Origin: an uncultured archaeon
GTDB lineage: Archaea > Asgardarchaeota > Heimdallarchaeia > Heimdallarchaeales > Heimdallarchaeaceae
DNA: 64,000 bases
Reading direction: 5' to 3'
Assembly: GCA_964549075.1 (NCBI GenBank)
Contig: CAZJUB010000005.1
Location: forward strand, 12,319 to 76,318
The notes beneath the pieces are model-generated. The model saw nothing but the letters and a program-made list of their open reading frames with translations. It searched no databases and was not told where the DNA came from. This document shows, in pieces, positions 31,568-45,398 of this stretch. Position 1 is the first letter of the stretch; every line of letters starts with the position of its first letter. The position numbers and the translations under genes were made by a program.

Positions 31568-34369
31568 TTATCTCTTTTTTGTATATATTACTGCACTAGC
31601 AAGTGCTACTATTCCAAGGATTGTTACTATTGATACAACAGTATATTCGGGTACAGCAGGTAAGCCTGTCAAAACTGAGTACAAATCTGGAAGTGCTCCA
31701 AATGTACTGCCTATCATGATTTCCATGTAAGCTGATACAAGACCACCATTTGATCCGTAGTCAGGTGTTTGTGTCATTTCAAAGTCAAAACTTGTCTTTA
31801 ATCCTGCACCTAATAATACTCCAGTTGTTTCATCAATGCCTACCCAGATAGTTCCTCTAATCCAACCTTCATAAGTATCTGTCTCCCATTGATAATCTCC
31901 ATTAAGATTGGAGAATTCTAAATCAATAGCAGCATCTACTGATATGTAGTAATAGTTTATAGGACTACCAGTTCCAGTGTAATGGAATTTGTTTGCTTCA
32001 AGTGTCAAACCAAAATCATAAAGATTGAAGTTTGTGTTTTGAAGAGATAATGCATTGAAAGCGTCTTCAATGTAGGAAGTTGCACCGAATATTGAATTAA
32101 GAGTTGTCCAGACACCATCCAGCAATTCATAATCTGTTGAATATTGTGGACCTTGTGGTGAGAATATTAGCCATTCATAATCTCCTATCTCTGGTGCTTC
32201 TGAAGTATTTGAAGGATTATACAGCGTCATTTGTGCGTCTGCCCAAAGACCGTCATACCCAATCATATCTACACCGAGTAATGGATTACCGACTGCGTCT
32301 AATCCGTTATTCTTGAATTCAACTACTCCATCCACAAAATCAGGATTTGCGGTTGGTGGTAAATCAAAGTAGAATACGAAATTATTTATTGTATATAACC
32401 AAGAATCTGGAGTTGGCATTACAGGAGCAATATTATCAGCTCTTGAAGGATCTAATTCGAGAACAATACTAGCCCATACATCATCCATTGAATTGAAGCT
32501 AAGATCTAATGAAACATTTTGAAGATAACCTGTTAGAGTATTATAACACCATGTAACATTCATAGACAGTTCTGGTCCTCCATCATACATCTTAAGATCC
32601 ATATAGAATAGATTGTTACCAGCATCATAAGTAGTATCGACTTCTTCAGTACTATTGTCTTCGTCTCTGTATTTATAATAAGTATCCATGGATACCCAAT
32701 CAGTGTCTCCTGCATAGAAAGTTTGCATTGGTACAACGGGTTCATTGAAGTGTCCATAATCAAATGATCCCCAATCAAACTCCCAGTTTCTATCAACTAG
32801 TTCTTCGAGATCTGTTAACATAGTGTAACCCATCATAGGTGTTGGAGCAACAGAACCAGAATCTAGACTAAATGAGAAGTTTGGTAAGGTCATATAATAA
32901 AATGGTCCAGCATGCCACAGCCAATATAAGGCATTTGCATTGTTTGCGAGTGTTGCGTATAAGTAACCATTGTGATAACCATCACGATATTGATTATCAT
33001 ATATGAAATTAGCGCCTTGTTCATATGGATCGGTAGTAGAAGGTGAGTATGGTAAACTTGATGGAGTGTCATCTTCAGGATGACTAGCTAGTTTATCAGC
33101 TGCTCCTTCGGCAAAACCATCATAGTATGAATTCCACACATAATTTTGCAATCCATACATGTATTGTTCGCCTACAGAATATCCATATTGTCCATCGTCA
33201 TAACCTGATGAATAGCCTTGATAGGCACCATCATTATATCCATGTTCATAAGAATCTCTTGGATCATAGATTGGATCATAGAAGTTGAAAGGATTGCTAT
33301 AGTATCCAGTCCAATATCCAGACCAATAGTAGTTCTGGTAACCATCTACATAACCATACCAGTAAGTATTATGAGCGTTATCGTATAAGTCATTGTATAA
33401 TTCATTGCTGAAATCTACTTTAGCTGCTTCATATCTATAACCTCTGCTGTAGAACATTTCATATGTATTCTGATAGTTCATATACATACTGAAATCATAC
33501 AGATCAGCGGGAGCTGGAATTGTTCCTGGGTATCTTTTATCAGGTATTCTAGTAGTGTTGAAATCAAGTCTTCCACTGAGAAAACCTTCATCCCATGCTT
33601 CATGAAAACCGAAATAATAAGCATTTAAAGCTGTTACCCAATCATTCCATGCGGGATTAGCTCCACTTTGGAAGTATCCATCATATCCTATTCTATATCC
33701 TATGTAGTAACCTAAATCCGATGCAAACCATGTTATATCGTTTTCACTATAGCTATCACCGTAAGGTTCCCATGCACTGAATCCCCATCCTTGATCAGCT
33801 TCATACCATCCGTTATTAAATCCGGCATCAAATGAATTGTTGAAGTTAACCCAGAATGCGTCATCTATTGGGTCTACGAATCTTGCATATGGCCAATAGT
33901 CATGATAAGATGAATAGTCTGTGTTTCTAAAGTCGTCAGGGAATGAAAAATCAGAAGCATTTATTTCTACTCCTAATTCTTGATTTAATTTCAAGAATGA
34001 GAAGATACTCATAGCATTAACAGCTGTTTCATTTACGTAAGCCTGACTGTTATAATCATACTCATAAAGATTGATTAAATCAGTTTTAGCTATGTAAGTG
34101 ATTAGCTCGGAACCTTCTAATGATCCGATTAATCCCTTGCCAAATTCAGGAGCTCCTGTTTGACTTAATAGCATATCAAGAACTTCCCAAATTCCTTCAC
34201 CATATTGAAAAGTTGAGACGTTGTAAACTAGTTTATCACCATCTGCAACTGCATTAAGTTGAGGGGATGTGGGAACAGTACTATCTTGAGTAGCTCTAGG
34301 AGTTGCCGAATTTACAAAAGGCAGTAATAATATCAATAAGCCTATTCCTAAAAATATCTGTCTTTTCAT
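31568..34369 (-). CDS. Large secreted acidic surface protein with Gly/Tyr (GYxxG) repeat region and C-terminal VPEY-TM-basic anchor
   Basis: Signal peptide MKRQIFLGIGLLILLLPFVNSA from ATG 34369; repeats such as GYVDGYQ and GYNDGAYQGYSSGYDDG; ends VPEY, hydrophobic helix, KKR. Confidence 0.8.
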   Translation of the reverse strand: MKRQIFLGIGLLILLLPFVNSATPRATQDSTVPTSPQLNAVADGDKLVYNVSTFQYGEGIWEVLDMLLSQTGAPEFGKGLIGSLEGSELITYIAKTDLINLYEYDYNSQAYVNETAVNAMSIFSFLKLNQELGVEINASDFSFPDDFRNTDYSSYHDYWPYARFVDPIDDAFWVNFNNSFDAGFNNGWYEADQGWGFSAWEPYGDSYSENDITWFASDLGYYIGYRIGYDGYFQSGANPAWNDWVTALNAYYFGFHEAWDEGFLSGRLDFNTTRIPDKRYPGTIPAPADLYDFSMYMNYQNTYEMFYSRGYRYEAAKVDFSNELYNDLYDNAHNTYWYGYVDGYQNYYWSGYWTGYYSNPFNFYDPIYDPRDSYEHGYNDGAYQGYSSGYDDGQYGYSVGEQYMYGLQNYVWNSYYDGFAEGAADKLASHPEDDTPSSLPYSPSTTDPYEQGANFIYDNQYRDGYHNGYLYATLANNANALYWLWHAGPFYYMTLPNFSFSLDSGSVAPTPMMGYTMLTDLEELVDRNWEFDWGSFDYGHFNEPVVPMQTFYAGDTDWVSMDTYYKYRDEDNSTEEVDTTYDAGNNLFYMDLKMYDGGPELSMNVTWCYNTLTGYLQNVSLDLSFNSMDDVWASIVLELDPSRADNIAPVMPTPDSWLYTINNFVFYFDLPPTANPDFVDGVVEFKNNGLDAVGNPLLGVDMIGYDGLWADAQMTLYNPSNTSEAPEIGDYEWLIFSPQGPQYSTDYELLDGVWTTLNSIFGATSYIEDAFNALSLQNTNFNLYDFGLTLEANKFHYTGTGSPINYYYISVDAAIDLEFSNLNGDYQWETDTYEGWIRGTIWVGIDETTGVLLGAGLKTSFDFEMTQTPDYGSNGGLVSAYMEIMIGSTFGALPDLYSVLTGLPAVPEYTVVSIVTILGIVALASAVIYTKKR
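32955..33840 (-). repeat. Imperfect GYxxG / aromatic-xx-Gly protein-level repeats (boundaries approximate)
   Basis: About eight blocks with 4-residue Gly periodicity in the translation. Confidence 0.7.
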
Positions 34370-34524
34370 AATTTGAACCCCTTTGGTTCTAATAATATAT
34401 ATTGAATATACCCTATAAAAAGATGATGTTCGTTTTTCACTTATTAGAATATAAGTGAAATTACAATAGAATGCAATTAAAGGGTAGAAAGGCGAAGTTT
34501 TTTGATTCAAAAATAAAGAGAAAA

Positions 34525-37130: not shown

Positions 37131-40100
37131 CTAATCGCACTTACTATATCCGCAACTTTTGCAAGTAAAACATCCTTCAGAGAGTTCTAACATCGCTCCA
37201 CAATCAGGGCAAGCTATAGTTCCATTAAATCTAACAATTTCTTCTCCATCAATATAGTTTTCCAAGACATGAGCTATTCCATCTGCACAGGATAATACTG
37301 TTTTACCTTGATAGAAGTTAGGATTAGGACATCGAATCCCTGCTAAATGCTCAACTATTGCTTCAAGTTTAACCCCAGAGCGGAGTGAGAGAGAAATCAA
37401 TCTACCTACTGCTTCACTTTGACTGGTGATACATCCACCACTTTTCCCTACCTGAACAAATACTTCACAAACTCCAGTTTCATCTCTATTAACTGTTACA
37501 TAGAGATTTCCACATCCTGATCTAATTTTATGGGTTCTTCCGAGAGTTACTTCAGGTCTTTCTCTTGGTTCCACTTTTTCAACAGCTCGGACTGATTGTT
37601 GAGCTTCAGTTTTCTCCTTTTTCTTTGTTGTAAGCACCTGATATTTGCGCGAACCATCTCGATATACAGTAATCCCTTTACATCCTTTCTGAAAAGCTAA
37701 TTGGTAAGCTTTGGCTATGTCTTCTCTTGTTGCAGAATTGGGAAAATTGATAGTTTTACTGGTAGCATTATCTATATACTTCTGGAATTCAGCCTGCATA
37801 TCTATATGCCATTCTGGAGAGATATCATGAGAAGTGACAAATACTCTTTTTTGTTCTTCAGGTATCTCTTCTACTTCTTGTATAGAGTTTTGATTTGAGA
37901 TTTTCTCAATCAGTTCTTCTGAGTATAAACCATTTTCTTTAAGATAATTTTCAAATATTGAATTGACATCAAAAAGTTTCTTTCCACCAAGAACATTACG
38001 AGTGAAAGCAATAGCGTAATATGGCTCAATTCCACTTGAACAACCAGCAATCAGTGATATAGTTCCTGTAGGAGCAATGGTGGTTACAGTTGCATTTCTC
38101 ATTGCTTCATAGTTAGATTTGAAGACACTTTTATCGAAATTGGGAAAATTACCTTTTTCTACGCCTAACCTAACAGATTCATCTCGAGCTGTCTTTTGGA
38201 TAAAGTCCATGATTTCTCCAGCAGTTTGAACACCTTCCTTACTATTGTAGGGAATGTTTAATTTAACAAGTAAGTCGGCAAAACCCATTACGCCTAATCC
38301 AATTTTTCGATTAGATTTGGTCATTTGCTCGATTTCAGGAAGGATGTAATCATTCTTGTCAATAACATTATCAAGAAAACGGACACCTTTTCTAACAGAA
38401 TCTTCAAGCAATTTCCAATTAATTTTACCTTCAGAAATGTGGTTAGAAAGGTTAATGGAACCTAAATTGCAGGATTCAAAAGAAAGCAACGGAGTCTCAC
38501 CACAATTGTGAGTATGAAAACCATTCGCAGAAAATGCATTTTTTAAAGGTATTTGGATATCATAAACTCTTTCCTTATTTACAAACACTATTTCTTTAAT
38601 TCTATGTGCAAATCTTTCACGATAAAATGGACGTTTATAATTTGATAATTTTTCTTCAAGTAGTGTTTGTTTGTCAGTGTCGCTGAATCCTACAATCTCT
38701 GCAAATATCTGCATATTATCTTTTGATATGATTAATTCATGTTGAGGTTTGATATGGTATTTTTTCATGCCTCCTTTTCCGTCAGGAAGTAGCTTCATTT
38801 GGGTTTTTCTTCTGTTTTTATAAATCCTTGATACAATTCCTAATCTATGAAGCATTCTTTGTACAGTCTCAAGAGTTCTAACATTTGATTGAGATAATCT
38901 TATAGATATTCCTTTATTTTGAAATCCTTGTACTGAACCATCTGCATCAAATAATCCTCTGATAAAGCCTATATGAAAATCATAACTTGTAGCTTCAAGT
39001 AATGGATTTATCTCTTTGAATCCTTGATACATACCATAATTGTTAGCTAAAGTGGTTATTTCAGCCAGTTTTAATCGATATTCATCTCTTATTAATTGTT
39101 TTCTAAATCCTGAAAAATCAGAACGATGAGGTAAATTATAAGCGTAATCTTCAACAAAAGAACGCATACTAATAGAACCTTCAGATTCTCCCCAAACTGA
39201 TAGTACTGCTTGATCTTCTGCAAATGTTCCATCTCCTAGTAGTAAACCTAAAACATATCCTTCTTCGAGTAATCCTTCACCTCCTATCCAACGAGTTCCA
39301 CGATTATTGCTTAATATTATTCTATCGTCTTTTTCAAGCTCTTCTAATGTTTTCCATTCTGTTTCTATCTCTTGTCTTGAGATTCGTTTAGCAACTTTAA
39401 ACAGATGGTCTTTGGTTGCTTTTATTGAATACCCACTTTGTGTTTTGATTTCAAAAACATCTTTTTCTCCTGTAAAGAAGAATCCTCTTATATCAGACTT
39501 TGTAAATTCACCATCTAATAGTAATTCTGTCTGCTTCCCTATTAAATCGAATATCATTTTAGGACCATCTAGAGTAGTTACCCAAGTATCTCCTGTCAAA
39601 CAAGGATTAGTTGACTCTATTTCTCCTACTTCTGGAGTAGGATTATCTTTGTTTATCCTATCTATAAAGATAATACCAGGTTCCCCATTCTTCCAAGCCA
39701 TTTCTACAATTTTATTGAAAACTTCTTTGGCATTTAATTTTGCTACAGGTTTATTCGTTCGAGGATTTATTAGATCATATTCTTCATTTTTGTTAACTGC
39801 TTTCATGAATTGCTCAGTAACTGCAACAGAGATGTTAAAATTAGTGAGCTTAGTTTGATCTTCTTTATAAGTGATAAACTCCATGATATCCGGATGGTCA
39901 ACACGGAGAACACCCATATTAGCTCCACGCCTTTTATTATGGACAAGTATACCATTTGCCACAAATTTGTTGGAACCTGATACTTCGATATCCATTGTAT
40001 AAGTTTTATCTTTTTCAATAGCTAGAACTTGAGAGTAATAATACTGTGGATTGATAATTTCTTGAAAATGCTGATCTTCCTTAAGAACTGGAAAAAGCTC

Positions 40101-43100
40101 AATGAGTTTTAGTAATCGTTTTCTTGTTAAGTTTCTTTTTCCTTTTGGATTTTCAGTGATGTAATGCTGAATAGCTCGGTAGAAAACCCTATCAGCACCT
40201 CTTTTTGTTCGTCCTTTACTAGTACCAGCACCGACATAATGATAAAGGCTCTTCATTCGAGAGCTTTGATTTGGGATATAATCGACATATTCGAAAGCTT
40301 TTGAAGGAAAACGATTAAGAAGAATCGTACTCTTTCTAGTTGAGCTGAAACCTATTTCATCTCTGAAAATACTTAAACTTCTTTCAGGAATGATTGAGAG
40401 GTTATAGATTGGTTTTTTGCCAAAACTATTATCTCTATTTGTATTTAGTGTAATAGAAGATACAATCCCTAAACCTAAGAGTAATTGCTGAAGTTGATAA
40501 ATTAATTTCTTTGAAATTGAGTAATATCTAGGATATCCATCCAAGTGTACATCACCATCACCAGAAAATAATCCTCTTACGAAACTTTTAGCTACTAAAG
40601 GAGAGGATTTGAATATTATCTCCGGTATAAACGCATCAGCAGATGAGGTCTTTTTCCACCCCATCTTATCAAAATATTCACATAGATCCCTTGAATAGAA
40701 AAACAGATCAGAATATGTTTCTTTATCATCAATAATACCTACTTCTAAACCAAAAGCGTTTATCATCAAATCTTGAATTCTCTGTATCAGATCTGAATCT
40801 TTGTTATTTATACTAAAAACTAATCTCCCATGAGTGCTTATACAACCATCAGCCATATATAAACCGAGAATTTCTCCAATTTCTGGAGTGATTTTTTCAG
40901 GAATAGTAATTTGGTTAGAATTAAAGTGTTGTTCCTTTAAAATTGGTAGATATTGATCAGTACCTTCATGACCACCGAGAGATACAACGAGCCAATCAGC
41001 CACTTTTAATTTCTCAACTTTTTTCCATTCAATATATCCATTTTCGCCTACTGTAGCAATTTGATGATTATATGTAGGTCTAATTACAATTCCTAAGTCA
41101 GTTGTGATTTTAATAACATCAGAAATCCCATTATCCATAGATAAATATGCATGATTAAAGTTATCTCCATCATAAACTAAAGATTGAGTAGGATTATCTT
41201 TCAAAGGAGGACAATTAAGTAAATCACCAATGGGAAAGGATCCCATATCTGTTCGGATAAGACTATCAGCTGCAATACATCCACCTTGTTTCACAGTATC
41301 AGTAGCTGCATTAAAAACTTCCATGAAAGAAAGGGGACCTGAATTTGAAACATAAAAACCACCTGCAGAAAGCATATTGACTTCTTCAACTTCTAGATTG
41401 TACACTTTTTCTTTTCCTATCCTGGTAATTTCTTGTATTTGAACAGGATATAGATTATCAAGCATTCTAATATATTCAAATTCATCACCAATTATATTGA
41501 AAGTTTCACTTTCTTCAATTAACCTTCTAAGAGCTCTTCTAGTTGTAACCTTGCTGTTATAAGGAATAATAGTTTTGGAAATCTTTGCTCTTTTCTTCGG
41601 ATCACTAATTTTTTTAAGTACGTTAAATGGATATGAAAACAGCCTATTCTTAGCTCCTTTTCTTAGAACATAATTTGCTAGTTTCACTGAATAAGGAGAA
41701 ATAAACTTGAAAAATCTTTCTTTAAAAATTGCAGTTGGTATAGAGATTCTATAACTAGGTTTTCTACCAACACCTCTGGTATCTATGGTTTTATCAAGAT
41801 AGAAAGTAGATAATACTCCAATTCTAGTTATTAGATTAGAAAAATCTTGAGCCATTTGCTCAGAGATTGTTTTAACACTAATTCTACCTTTCTTACCTAT
41901 ATGTCCATCACCATCAAAATAACCTGCAATAAACGAGCATACAACATTAAGCGGGCTTCTAAATATCTTATCTGGTATACTTATAAATTCACAATTCTCT
42001 TTGAGAAGTTTATTCTCATCTAAAAGTTGTACATATTTCTTACCATGGATTCTAAGTTCAACTTTGTTAATTTTTTCTCTTCTATACTCTCTTATTTCGT
42101 AATCAAATTTACTACTTGTGATTTGTTTAATTTTCTCAATAACTTTTTTTTGTTTTATATTCAAAGAGATATTTATAAAATAATGACGACCATTATTAGT
42201 GATATTTCCATCTGCATATGTTAAACCTAGAAAATATGCTAAATCTTCATCTAAATCCACAGAATATTCATTTGCGTCTTCTAATTGCGTTGCCAAAGTG
42301 ATAACACTAGGACTGTTTTCATTTGGTTCTTTTGCTAATAAGAAAACATAATCAGAGACATTGAGATCAGCTAATGGTCTTAAGACAAGATTATCGTTCT
42401 CAATTGTGAGAAACTTGTGATTCAAAGTCGTTTTTAGCTTGTAACCATTGGACACACAGGTTTCATAAACATCAGCATAACCATTGTCAAATTTGTTTAT
42501 TATATTACAATAATCCTTATGAGTTTGAGCTTTAATTTCTAAATCAGAATTTATTATATCTTCAAGCCGTAGAAGACCTTTATTAGTGTGAATGCGAACA
42601 GAAGCAGGAAAACAAGCTATTCCTCCTGTTGTTTTTACAACATCGTTCTTAGGTCTTAACTTGGAGAAAGCAAAACCTGTATTATGAATTGAAACAAATT
42701 GAGTATTTCCACCTAGATAATTATTATATCGAGGAACTGTAAAATCATAAAATTGTATTTTTTCTTTAATCTTCTTAATGGATTTCACTTTTATCTTCCG
42801 ATTAGAGAGTAACTTTGTTTTTCTGGGATTCTTTTTCGTAAACAAAAGTTGAGTATAACCTGTTGGGAACTCTATACTCCACCAAGATCCTTGGATTTTT
42901 CTATCTCTTTTATCCACTCTGAATCTTACTTTGCAGTTAATTCCAAGAAGAGACAAATGACGAACAATAAAATCTTTCATTTCCTTAGATCCAGTTGCAA
43001 TACCAGATTGATCTCTTCCTATCCAACCATCGGAATCTATTAATCCAGAAATCAAAGCTTTTGGATTTGGACACAAGAAAGTCTCTCTAGGAACCATTTT

Positions 43101-45398
43101 TTTATTTATATTATTCTGATTCAGTTCAACAAACCTTTTTATGAAATCTGCTAATTTTGTGTTGAAGTTTCCACTAAAATCACTATAACTCTCTCTCTGA
43201 TTGTACCTTGAAGTGATAGAGAGTGTTCTACATTCTGTTCTCTTATCAGTGCTAATGCTTCCAGAAATTCCATCAGTATATGAAGATATTATTGTAGAAA
43301 TCCGATTCAAATATTTTGAGTCCTTAGAATGAAATCTTAATCTTACACCATTCTTTGTAGTATCTAGACTTCCATCACCAAGAAAGAATCCATAAAGCCA
43401 CCAGAAATCTGGTTCTTCATTGACAAATAAGTTATCATGAAATGAAGGTGTAACTAGCCAATCACCAATTTCTAATTCATCAGCTCTTTTTGAGACATAT
43501 TCTCCTCCGCTTTGTTGATTAGGATATGGTTCGTAAACAATAAAAGGGTGCCAATCAGTAACTCTAACGAATCCTTCTGTTCCAAAATTTATTTGCAGAA
43601 AAGAATCCCTTTCGAATCGCCATAGATGCGAGACTTTAGCTCTTGTAAATGACTCAGTAGTTTCATCAAAGGAAAACACTGTAAATTGACTACAAGAGTG
43701 ACCTTTCTCATCAATTGGAATATCAGAAAATCCAGGAATATTCTCAATAGGAACAAGACCATATTCAACGGTTGGGATAACAGTTCCTGCGCTACAACAA
43801 CCTCCACCAGCTTGGTGAATTAATGCTGAAAGTTTTACTGCTTCAAATATTGAGGACATATCATCTTCTATTGGAAGCACAAAACAAGCTGAGAGCATCC
43901 CTAGAGCTGTTCCTGCATTCATTAATGTTGGAGAATTATGACTTACAAAACCATCAGCGAGATAGGTATGGTTTTTTGGAACCATCAGATCTCCAACAAC
44001 AACTTTTTCTTTCTTTTTTGTAATTGTTTTTACTTGTTGAAACACTAAATTTGAATCAACGAGTTCAGTTACAGGAGATGTTTTTAAACTAGGGAATTGT
44101 TTGGTGTAAAAGTTAAAAATCTCTTCTGAGATATCTTGTTTATATTTCCCTTTGATCATAAATCGCGCTATTTTTCTATACAAGTTATAATCTTTATTTT
44201 GGTGATACCAATCATATAATTTCTTTTGTTGGTTCGGGATTTTGTGAGTTCTATCATTCTTTGATTTTTTTATAAGCTGAAGTCTAGAATTTTTACGTTT
44301 ACTTAAAAAACCAATCTCATTTTTATAAATTAGTCCATCCCTATTATTTTTAATAGTGAGTCTAAATCCATCTACTCGCTTAGAAACACGTGAGCTTATA
44401 CCTAAACCAAGTAAAAGAATTTGAGTTTGTTTTATTAGTTTTTGTGAAGATGAAGCAAATTCTATTCCTCTATCACTGATTGAACCATCAGCTTCAAAAA
44501 GACCTCTTAAAAAAGATTTTATAACATTCTTATTAGATTTTAAAATTAATTTAGGAATTTCAGCTTTTGAAGATGATACTTTAATTAGATTGTTATTATG
44601 TAAGTAATTTGAAAGAACCACACTATTTAGTGAGACTTCATAAATGTTTGCTCGGGCCGGTTTTTGAATAGAAGGCTTTAGGTTGAAAAGTTTCATTGAT
44701 AAATTACGAATCCTTTCTAGTAAATCTTTGTCTTTTCCATAAATTGCAATTCTTAGATCATATTTTCTTAAATTACCATCTCCGATGTACCATCCAATTA
44801 ATTCTGCAAGATCTTCATTTAAATATTCAGGGAGGATTATAGATTTTGGAGGAGTGCCAACAGACTCTATTTTCTTATCTGTTTTTAAACTTATTAATTC
44901 ACAATGGTCTTTAATAAAATCTCTTCGCAAAGAAATCCAATCATTCTCTTTCAGATCTTTGGTTTGTTTCCAAACATAGTCTCCATTTTCATCAATAATT
45001 CGAAAATAATGAAGTGGAGTACATTGGACAGAATAACCATCTTCTGTTACAATCTCTACAATATTTTGAAAACCATTATTAAAACACAATTCAGCTTTTT
45101 CTATATCATTGTCAGAATATACATTCAAATCAATGTTACCAACTGGAATTTCATCCAAAGTAAGTATTCCTTGTGTTGTTGGAATCATTGTGTCTTCTGT
45201 TACACAATTTGGTAAAAATCTCAATGAAGTCATCATTTCAAGAAATTCCTTTCTTTCTTCTTCTGTGTCTCCAATATAATTCGCTACCCTCCCAAACATT
45301 TCTTCTATTGTTTCAATTGGTTTGTTATGTTCATCTTTTTGCAGATATCTTTTTTCTAGTACTGTTTTTGCATTTTCTGAGAGTTTTAATTCTGTCAC
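37131..45398 (-). CDS. nrdJ: Class II (adenosylcobalamin-dependent) ribonucleotide reductase with five inteins; about 720 aa mature, C-terminal TSCPD/zinc ribbon
   Basis: Exteins join as FLPN|SPTLMNAG, SACFV, GGG|TG, GGIA|SGP, QGG|KRRGANM, NP|CGE, CNLGSINL, TIAPTGT, KGITVYRDG; ends CPDC...CKSCGYSKC. Confidence 0.95.
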   Translation of the reverse strand: MTELKLSENAKTVLEKRYLQKDEHNKPIETIEEMFGRVANYIGDTEEERKEFLEMMTSLRFLPNCVTEDTMIPTTQGILTLDEIPVGNIDLNVYSDNDIEKAELCFNNGFQNIVEIVTEDGYSVQCTPLHYFRIIDENGDYVWKQTKDLKENDWISLRRDFIKDHCELISLKTDKKIESVGTPPKSIILPEYLNEDLAELIGWYIGDGNLRKYDLRIAIYGKDKDLLERIRNLSMKLFNLKPSIQKPARANIYEVSLNSVVLSNYLHNNNLIKVSSSKAEIPKLILKSNKNVIKSFLRGLFEADGSISDRGIEFASSSQKLIKQTQILLLGLGISSRVSKRVDGFRLTIKNNRDGLIYKNEIGFLSKRKNSRLQLIKKSKNDRTHKIPNQQKKLYDWYHQNKDYNLYRKIARFMIKGKYKQDISEEIFNFYTKQFPSLKTSPVTELVDSNLVFQQVKTITKKKEKVVVGDLMVPKNHTYLADGFVSHNSPTLMNAGTALGMLSACFVLPIEDDMSSIFEAVKLSALIHQAGGGCCSAGTVIPTVEYGLVPIENIPGFSDIPIDEKGHSCSQFTVFSFDETTESFTRAKVSHLWRFERDSFLQINFGTEGFVRVTDWHPFIVYEPYPNQQSGGEYVSKRADELEIGDWLVTPSFHDNLFVNEEPDFWWLYGFFLGDGSLDTTKNGVRLRFHSKDSKYLNRISTIISSYTDGISGSISTDKRTECRTLSITSRYNQRESYSDFSGNFNTKLADFIKRFVELNQNNINKKMVPRETFLCPNPKALISGLIDSDGWIGRDQSGIATGSKEMKDFIVRHLSLLGINCKVRFRVDKRDRKIQGSWWSIEFPTGYTQLLFTKKNPRKTKLLSNRKIKVKSIKKIKEKIQFYDFTVPRYNNYLGGNTQFVSIHNTGFAFSKLRPKNDVVKTTGGIACFPASVRIHTNKGLLRLEDIINSDLEIKAQTHKDYCNIINKFDNGYADVYETCVSNGYKLKTTLNHKFLTIENDNLVLRPLADLNVSDYVFLLAKEPNENSPSVITLATQLEDANEYSVDLDEDLAYFLGLTYADGNITNNGRHYFINISLNIKQKKVIEKIKQITSSKFDYEIREYRREKINKVELRIHGKKYVQLLDENKLLKENCEFISIPDKIFRSPLNVVCSFIAGYFDGDGHIGKKGRISVKTISEQMAQDFSNLITRIGVLSTFYLDKTIDTRGVGRKPSYRISIPTAIFKERFFKFISPYSVKLANYVLRKGAKNRLFSYPFNVLKKISDPKKRAKISKTIIPYNSKVTTRRALRRLIEESETFNIIGDEFEYIRMLDNLYPVQIQEITRIGKEKVYNLEVEEVNMLSAGGFYVSNSGPLSFMEVFNAATDTVKQGGCIAADSLIRTDMGSFPIGDLLNCPPLKDNPTQSLVYDGDNFNHAYLSMDNGISDVIKITTDLGIVIRPTYNHQIATVGENGYIEWKKVEKLKVADWLVVSLGGHEGTDQYLPILKEQHFNSNQITIPEKITPEIGEILGLYMADGCISTHGRLVFSINNKDSDLIQRIQDLMINAFGLEVGIIDDKETYSDLFFYSRDLCEYFDKMGWKKTSSADAFIPEIIFKSSPLVAKSFVRGLFSGDGDVHLDGYPRYYSISKKLIYQLQQLLLGLGIVSSITLNTNRDNSFGKKPIYNLSIIPERSLSIFRDEIGFSSTRKSTILLNRFPSKAFEYVDYIPNQSSRMKSLYHYVGAGTSKGRTKRGADRVFYRAIQHYITENPKGKRNLTRKRLLKLIELFPVLKEDQHFQEIINPQYYYSQVLAIEKDKTYTMDIEVSGSNKFVANGILVHNKRRGANMGVLRVDHPDIMEFITYKEDQTKLTNFNISVAVTEQFMKAVNKNEEYDLINPRTNKPVAKLNAKEVFNKIVEMAWKNGEPGIIFIDRINKDNPTPEVGEIESTNPCLTGDTWVTTLDGPKMIFDLIGKQTELLLDGEFTKSDIRGFFFTGEKDVFEIKTQSGYSIKATKDHLFKVAKRISRQEIETEWKTLEELEKDDRIILSNNRGTRWIGGEGLLEEGYVLGLLLGDGTFAEDQAVLSVWGESEGSISMRSFVEDYAYNLPHRSDFSGFRKQLIRDEYRLKLAEITTLANNYGMYQGFKEINPLLEATSYDFHIGFIRGLFDADGSVQGFQNKGISIRLSQSNVRTLETVQRMLHRLGIVSRIYKNRRKTQMKLLPDGKGGMKKYHIKPQHELIISKDNMQIFAEIVGFSDTDKQTLLEEKLSNYKRPFYRERFAHRIKEIVFVNKERVYDIQIPLKNAFSANGFHTHNCGETPLLSFESCNLGSINLSNHISEGKINWKLLEDSVRKGVRFLDNVIDKNDYILPEIEQMTKSNRKIGLGVMGFADLLVKLNIPYNSKEGVQTAGEIMDFIQKTARDESVRLGVEKGNFPNFDKSVFKSNYEAMRNATVTTIAPTGTISLIAGCSSGIEPYYAIAFTRNVLGGKKLFDVNSIFENYLKENGLYSEELIEKISNQNSIQEVEEIPEEQKRVFVTSHDISPEWHIDMQAEFQKYIDNATSKTINFPNSATREDIAKAYQLAFQKGCKGITVYRDGSRKYQVLTTKKKEKTEAQQSVRAVEKVEPRERPEVTLGRTHKIRSGCGNLYVTVNRDETGVCEVFVQVGKSGGCITSQSEAVGRLISLSLRSGVKLEAIVEHLAGIRCPNPNFYQGKTVLSCADGIAHVLENYIDGEEIVRFNGTIACPDCGAMLELSEGCFTCKSCGYSKCD
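38505..39602 (-). mobile_element. Intein 5 (366 aa) with LAGLIDADG endonuclease, active-site NP|CGE insertion
   Basis: Starts CLTGDT, block B ATKDH, motifs YVLGLLLGDG and FIRGLFDADG, ends HTHN; +1 Cys is the thiyl-radical cysteine. Confidence 0.94.
39936..41279 (-). mobile_element. Intein 4 (448 aa) with LAGLIDADG endonuclease, site QGG|K; non-canonical +1 Lys
   Basis: Starts CIAADS, block B PTYNH, motifs EILGLYMADG and FVRGLFSGDG, ends LVHN; next codon AAA (39933-39935, minus strand). Confidence 0.92.
41343..42614 (-). mobile_element. Intein 3 (424 aa) with LAGLIDADG endonuclease, site GGIA|S
   Basis: Starts CFPASV, block B TTLNH, motifs YFLGLTYADG and FIAGYFDGDG, ends YVSN (no penultimate His); +1 Ser. 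Confidence 0.92.
42681..43799 (-). mobile_element. Intein 2 (373 aa) with LAGLIDADG endonuclease, site GGG|T
   Basis: Starts CCSAGT, block B VTDWH, motifs WLYGFFLGDG and LISGLIDSDG, ends SIHN; +1 Thr. Confidence 0.92.
43935..45206 (-). mobile_element. Intein 1 (424 aa) with LAGLIDADG endonuclease, site FLPN|S
   Basis: Starts CVTEDT, block B CTPLH, motifs ELIGWYIGDG and FLRGLFEADG, ends VSHN; +1 Ser. Confidence 0.93.

Follow-up and report, generated by a model that had tools for sequence, protein, structure and literature searches.

Inteins are defined in part by a Cys, Ser or Thr as the first residue of the C-extein (the +1 position), and this residue, which is kept as a scar in the product, is the main practical limit of intein-based protein ligation. 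Bacterial intein-like (BIL) domains are not known to carry an endonuclease and are found in variable regions of non-essential bacterial proteins. The domains of type A are described, in the available part of PMC4031507, as HINT domains with an N-terminal Cys and a C-terminal His-Asn in which the +1 nucleophile is absent, and the mechanism proposed there consists of thioester formation, Asn cyclization and attack by the free amino group. The same part of that source records that some natural inteins without an N-terminal nucleophile still splice. The subject of this text is a window of 64,000 nucleotides (the whole stretch of DNA that was analysed) from contig CAZJUB010000005.1 of an uncultured Heimdallarchaeaceae archaeon (assembly GCA_964549075.1), in which the gene nrdJ, predicted to encode a ribonucleotide reductase, is interrupted by five inteins. 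The fourth of these, intein 4, is followed by Lys. This Lys is real, and the inteins that share a non-nucleophilic +1 residue at the same site form, in the trees given below, a real, recurrent and monophyletic variant, the mechanism of which we infer.

Intein 4 shares with the type A BIL domains the N-terminal Cys, the His-Asn end, the lack of a +1 nucleophile and the mechanism that is proposed here. It differs from them in being mobile, with a homing endonuclease, and in lying at a conserved site of an essential enzyme, from which its removal restores the host motif. Descent from a BIL domain is not indicated, as its nearest relatives appear to be canonical Thr/Ser inteins, a placement that rests on a sister relation in a tree without BIL sequences. 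By analogy, intein 4 would work like a type A BIL domain, yet it is not one. Compared with the inteins that lack an N-terminal nucleophile and keep the +1 residue, the situation is reversed, Cys1 being kept and the +1 nucleophile lost. The class 3 inteins, which have no N-terminal nucleophile, a block F Cys and a WCT motif, are likewise different in that intein 4 has Cys1 and a block F Asp. Inteins like intein 4 do not appear in the available parts of PMC4031507, PMC7664689 and PMC4760082. In the literature searched, no report was found of inteins without a +1 nucleophile in a ribonucleotide reductase or in archaea, InBase and the primary BIL papers lying outside that scope, so that an earlier notice is possible.

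Structure of intein 4 and its host gene

The nrdJ open reading frame (ORF) encodes 2755 amino acids (aa), 720 in the exteins and 2035 in the five inteins. Pfam finds all three NrdJ domains, namely the barrel (PF02867 Ribonuc_red_lgC, E 3.9e-115), the N-terminal helical domain (PF00317 Ribonuc_red_lgN, E 7.9e-18) and the C-terminal Cys-rich TSCPD domain (PF12637, E 4.2e-21), together with multiple Intein_splicing and LAGLIDADG matches. The gene and the features of intein 4 are listed here; counts refer to the clade of 64 inteins, and to its sister clade of 108, that are described below.

37131-45398, minus strand: nrdJ precursor, predicted from Pfam matches to be a class II (B12-dependent) ribonucleotide reductase
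39936-41279, minus strand: intein 4, 448 aa, at QGG/K, +1 Lys, with a nested LAGLIDADG homing endonuclease
41280-41288, minus strand: N-extein QGG, with Gly at -1, read from the sequence
41277-41279, minus strand: Cys1, the N-terminal nucleophile of intein 4, kept in 64/64 clade members
41064-41075, minus strand: block B TxxH (TYNH); in the clade, Thr in 64/64 and His in 56/64
40842-40871, minus strand: first LAGLIDADG motif; acidic residue in 58/64 of the clade
40551-40583, minus strand: second LAGLIDADG motif; Asp in 62/64 of the clade
39957-40001, minus strand: block F with Asp; Asp in 53/64 of the clade and 108/108 of the sister clade
39936-39956, minus strand: block G NGILVHN with the terminal His-Asn; His in 64/64 and Asn in 64/64 of the clade
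39933-39935, minus strand: +1 codon AAA (Lys), which opens the C-extein; its aligned counterpart in Thermotoga maritima NrdJ is Arg206

Along the minus strand the reading across intein 4 is ...TVKQGG/CIAADS...NGILVHN/KRRGANMG..., where each slash marks a junction. A sequence-only reading of this DNA had described a Lys at +1 and an intact Cys1, TxxH, block F Asp, terminal His-Asn and pair of LAGLIDADG motifs; all of these were confirmed, the +1 codon being AAA at 39933-39935. With its flanks, intein 4 scores 40.1 bits against Pfam Intein_splicing (cut-off 35.8), so that the HINT splicing domain is recognizable, and it matches LAGLIDADG_3 with E 2e-21. Among the HINT families, at E up to 1, it matches Intein_splicing only. 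The HINT domain, the in-frame insertion, Cys1 with TxxH and the His-Asn end are those of a class 1 intein; the +1 residue, Lys in place of Cys, Ser or Thr, is not.

Excision of the 448 residues yields QGG-K-RRGANM, which is the motif of the intein-less alleles (20/20) and bears out the earlier statement that the joined extein is a normal NrdJ motif. Neither the junction letters nor the intein-less alleles allow shifted boundaries that would give intein 4 a +1 nucleophile. The N-extein ends in Gly and the intein in Asn, and the intein starts with Cys and the C-extein with Lys, so no shifted boundary gives the same product. Judged from these features, intein 4 is an intein in every defining respect bar the +1 nucleophile.

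The +1 residue across homologous inteins

A set of 262 homologous proteins came from two database searches. The query of the first was the intein region of the whole protein; in the second, made against cluster representatives, it was the intein together with 30 flanking residues. An intein was parsed at the QGG/x-RRGA site in 173 of the 262, with T 85, K 42, S 24, R 18, I 2, M 1 and V 1 at +1, so that 64 of the 173 inteins have a non-nucleophilic residue (K, R, I, M or V). The first 120 proteins had given 113 parsed inteins (T 61, K 31, R 15, S 4, I 1, M 1); the seven left unparsed were four without an intein at the site, one without an N-junction and two with a variant motif that were later parsed as Ser. 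A hidden Markov model (HMM) of blocks F-G, run over the 262 proteins, places a non-nucleophilic +1 residue at 70 of 188 C-junctions of the QGG/x site. At the other intein sites the same HMM finds 243 C-junctions with C 105, S 69, T 68 and V 1, and the flanks of the sole Val exception (P0164) place its junction at the QGG/x site itself, with a variant extein motif. The HMM, which overlooked intein 2 (Thr at +1), detected nine other intein C-termini in the window's own genome, and all of them have C, S or T (9/9). The frequency with which the +1 nucleophile is missing at QGG/x is far beyond chance and, since C, S or T is present at 242 of 243 junctions elsewhere and at 9/9 in the window's own genome, the anomaly is specific to the site and is not noise from gene calling. 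A tabulation of this kind had been put forward as a check on the sequence-only reading, and its outcome favours a real class.

The other four inteins of nrdJ have S, T, S and C at +1, as the same reading had stated:

43935-45206, minus strand: intein 1, 424 aa, +1 Ser
42681-43799, minus strand: intein 2, 373 aa, +1 Thr
41343-42614, minus strand: intein 3, 424 aa, +1 Ser
38505-39602, minus strand: intein 5, 366 aa, +1 Cys, which is the Cys of the NPCGE motif

Intein 3 terminates in Ser-Asn, and so is without the penultimate His; its +1 residue, as listed, is Ser.

The Lys codon of intein 4 was also compared with other assemblies and with close relatives. Contigs of runs X6 (record 7) and X8 (record 16) cover 39933-39935 with 0 differing letters. 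A contig of run X1 has the same letters there; X1 may be the source sample and was not counted as independent. P0004, a 97%-identical protein of other source, also reads HN/K. At the related-genome loci with the same intein (57-76% identical) the +1 residue is Arg in 10/10, with the codons CGT, CGC or CGG. No single base change would link these CGN codons to a Thr codon. On all of these grounds together, a one-base error or mutation of a Thr codon is rejected. The Lys at +1 of intein 4 is thus confirmed as real and not an error. A contig of run X10, a 95-99% variant, spans the +1 codon with 28 differing letters in the piece, none at 39933-39935 among the differences listed; with 13 further differences unlisted, it was not counted as support for the codon. 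Of the intein 4 differences listed for X10, 14 of 27 are synonymous, a share that, for these listed differences only, gives a rough sign of purifying selection on intein 4.

Phylogeny and conservation

In an IQ-TREE phylogeny of 113 inteins all 48 non-nucleophile rows lie on a single branch (SH-like approximate likelihood ratio test, SH-aLRT, 99; length 0.52), which adjoins a branch of 62 T/S rows. FastTree, applied to 172 distinct inteins, gives a clade of 64 with support 1.0 that is made up of 63 non-nucleophile rows and one Thr row; outside it, all 108 rows are T/S. Within the clade the +1 residue has switched several times between K, R, I, M and V. Pairwise identity inside it has a median of 43% and a minimum of 20%, and the median identity between the clade and its T/S sister clade is 30%. 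The Thr row (P0204) and a Lys row (P0201) are neighbouring long branches inside the clade, both with the reductase motif RRGAQMG; the Thr of P0204 may be a reversion to the nucleophile.

The Thr/Ser inteins at QGG/x of NrdJ (for example P0037, P0055 and P0078) share with the clade the site, homology over the full length, a nested endonuclease, blocks A, B, F and G with Cys1, TxxH and His-Asn, and a patchy, mobile-looking distribution. Cys1 and the terminal Asn are invariant in both groups (64/64 in the clade and 108/108 in the sister clade for each), block B Thr is found in 64/64 and 107/108, and the penultimate His in 64/64 and 102/108. Apart from K, R, I, M or V at +1, the clade differs from its sister in three respects. 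Block B His is found in 56/64 as against 108/108, block F Asp is held by 53/64 as against all of the sister clade, with D, H or E at this position across the clade, and the residue at -3 from the C-junction is hydrophobic (Val in 56/64) where the sister clade has Ser or Thr (105/108). No new Cys, Ser or Thr is conserved clade-specifically in the splicing domain; the clade-specific Cys and Ser sit in the endonuclease part. The active site of the clade is read, from this pattern, as still in use but re-tuned.

Two further patterns were seen at the same positions. A paired swap, block B His to Glu or Asp with block F Asp to His, is present in P0054, P0082, P0087, P0096, P0138 and P0139, all in the non-nucleophile clade only, and looks compensatory. 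Glu takes the place of the block F Asp in P0031, P0040, P0127 and P0128, which carry Ile, Met or Val at +1 and cluster in the tree, and likewise in one Lys member of the clade.

Few members of either clade are named. The named hosts of the non-nucleophile clade are Heimdall-, Loki- and Odin-type Asgard archaea, Micrarchaeota and Aenigmarchaeota, whereas those of the T/S sister clade are mostly bacteria. The clade member P0014 bears the label Promethearchaeota. Viral contigs, queried with a single protein that reaches close relatives only, contained no relative. As far as the trees and the named hosts show, the lineage is old, mostly archaeal and monophyletic, and is derived from, or sister to, the canonical Thr/Ser inteins of the same site.

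The host residue at the insertion site

The intein-less alleles, of which 16 come from the window's genus, one from the same family and three from the same class, all read QGG(K or R)RRGANM (20/20), with Lys in 3 and Arg in 17. As K or R is native at this position, the intein precedes the residue that the enzyme wants, and no Thr is imposed on the host. In the alignment with T. maritima NrdJ, which has a solved structure (PDB 1xje and related entries) and no intein, the extein motif after the junction matches from residue 206 on, and Lys+1 falls on Arg206. The QGG/K stretch belongs to what we take to be specificity loop 2 of NrdJ, residue range 203-211 (Larsson et al. 2004). Loop 2 transmits allosteric specificity, according to the available part of PMC6459318. 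Within the window's genus the intein is found in four genomes (G000, G002, G005 and G008) and is absent from the site in the 16 checked, and this presence and absence is, to judge from the sequences, the patchy pattern of a homing element.

Dependence of the host on nrdJ

The window's genome (3.2 Mb in 217 contigs, 89.7% complete) has a single PF02867 locus, and searches of it for PF13597 (NrdD) and PF00268 (NrdB) found none. Each of five intein-bearing relatives (G005, G008, G025, G027 and G030) has a single PF02867 gene, and a search for PF13597 found none in any of the five. Two of them, G027 and G030, are single-contig assemblies in which the sole PF02867 gene bears the intein, with Arg at +1. 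As far as these searches reach, the intein is shown to interrupt what would be the only ribonucleotide reductase gene of its hosts, and a dead nrdJ gene appears very unlikely. In G030 (L014) the intein is cut to 381 residues, with 67 lost from the endonuclease region, but neither the open frame nor either of the two junctions is affected.

Proposed mechanism and alternatives

The family of intein 4 probably works by an unusual route. We propose that intein 4 and its clade splice by way of a Cys1 thioester, Asn cyclization and attack by the freed alpha-amine, and we give this reading a probability of about one half. First, the customary thioester would form between Cys1 and Gly-1. As there is no +1 side chain that could accept the acyl group, Asn cyclization would then cut the C-junction directly, and the freed alpha-amine of Lys+1 would attack the thioester, giving a normal QGG-K peptide bond and an intact NrdJ. 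The intein pocket, together with the folded reductase barrel, would keep the amine of Lys+1 close to the Gly thioester, and unhindered thioesters of this kind are quick to react. The invariance of Cys1 and of His-Asn (64/64) means that the residues on which the N-S acyl shift and Asn cyclization depend have been kept.

Several points weigh against this proposal. Sequence cannot tell the ligation that we infer from cleavage to a two-chain enzyme, both of which were on the list of the sequence-only reading, and cleavage without ligation would require the same conserved residues. Canonical inteins that are mutated at +1 cleave instead of splicing. Type A BIL domains give mostly cleavage products, according to the available parts of PMC4031507 and PMC7664689. 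No residue or motif came to light that could account for a changed coupling of the steps, the hydrophobic -3 residue and the looser block B His and block F Asp of the clade being suggestive at most. Finally, the window's genome is 89.7% complete and the single-contig relatives reach 92-93% by marker count, so that a second reductase, of a type that the models do not cover, is conceivable.

The alternative that survives best, although we consider it somewhat unlikely, is that both junctions are cleaved, one through Asn cyclization and the other through hydrolysis or thiolysis of the thioester, to leave a two-chain, non-covalent reductase nicked between Gly and Lys in loop 2. Cleavage is the default expectation where there is no +1 nucleophile, BIL domains being predominantly cleaved in what is available of PMC7664689 and PMC4031507, and it would require precisely the set that is conserved, Cys1 and His-Asn in 64/64. 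The limitation of the anomaly to one site (70/188 as against about 0/242 elsewhere) would also fit a host loop that tolerates a nick, but confinement to a single site is equally expected of any clade that is tied to one homing site. The nick would fall within loop 2, beside Arg206 and Arg207 (T. maritima numbering), in the loop whose allosteric role is described in the available part of PMC6459318. Damage to a sole reductase should be costly, yet the clade is old and widespread and is kept, in single-contig genomes, within the only reductase gene; this argument is a soft one.

Other chemistry, or a helper, is distinctly improbable. An internal nucleophile or a trans-acting factor might take the place of the +1 residue, or splicing might be conditional and act as a switch on the supply of deoxynucleoside triphosphates (dNTPs). 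The loosening of block B His and block F Asp, each invariant in the sister clade (108/108), to 56/64 and 53/64 could be taken in favour of such a change, but the splicing domain has no clade-specific conserved Cys, Ser or Thr to serve as the nucleophile, and the neighbouring genes suggest no helper.

It is very doubtful that there is no processing at all, whether the reductase tolerates an insert of 448 residues or the gene is a decaying pseudogene and dNTPs come from elsewhere. Another source of dNTPs is conceivable in a genome that is 89.7% complete. Against this, the 8.3-kb frame is open across five inteins and the extein motif has been conserved. The catalytic junction residues persist in 64/64 at 43% median identity, two single-contig genomes have no other PF02867 gene, and half of the listed near-strain differences are synonymous.

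Isopeptide splicing, in which the thioester would react with the epsilon-amine of Lys+1 and the N-extein would thereby be joined to the Lys side chain, had been among the options of the sequence-only reading and is extremely unlikely, being disfavoured as a general route. Lys is the commonest non-nucleophilic +1 residue (42/64) and amines can attack thioesters. However, Arg (18), Ile (2), Met (1) and Val (1) occupy the same position with the same conserved junction residues, and the related loci have Arg in 10/10, so a Lys-specific reaction is unlikely; the choice of K or R is moreover set by the host, as the 20/20 intein-less alleles show, and the product would be a branched loop 2. Weakest of all is a sequencing or assembly error or a private Thr-codon mutation, raised earlier as ACA to AAA: although AAA is one base from ACA, this is rejected by the identical X6 and X8 contigs, the Lys of P0004, the CGN Arg codons of the relatives, the homologue table and the 63 non-nucleophile members of a deep clade.

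Should splicing by the freed alpha-amine be correct, the clade might, still more tentatively, be regarded as a fourth mechanistic kind, comprising mobile, endonuclease-bearing inteins that ligate by a peptide bond without a +1 side-chain nucleophile, that arose once from Thr/Ser inteins and that have long been kept in an essential reductase of several archaeal phyla. If the clade yields a working enzyme, then either nucleophile-free splicing must be efficient enough to serve an essential gene, or a class II reductase must stay active with a nick in its specificity loop. The first, if true, would offer a starting point for truly traceless protein splicing and would be a second, independent loss of the +1 nucleophile, linking inteins with BIL domains. 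The second would be news for reductase allostery.

Neighbouring genes and other inteins

The neighbours of nrdJ encode an aminotransferase, a DUF354 protein, a subtilase and proteins of no recognized kind, and nothing among these neighbouring genes points to a splicing helper. Downstream of nrdJ, an ORF of 980 residues at 31568-34510 (minus strand) has no Pfam match. An antisense ORF of 183 codons at 39307-39858 (plus strand), within nrdJ, is without a family match and is probably spurious. Salt-marsh or marine sediments harbour the organism of the window. The closest named homologues are labelled Heimdallarchaeaceae, and multi-intein NrdJ homologues of 1550-2839 residues are common in Asgard and DPANN-type archaea. 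Genome G000 has 18 Intein_splicing matches in all, with other intein-containing genes on contigs C47, C27, C22, C156, C14 and C2, and includes one frame of 2305 residues with several inteins.

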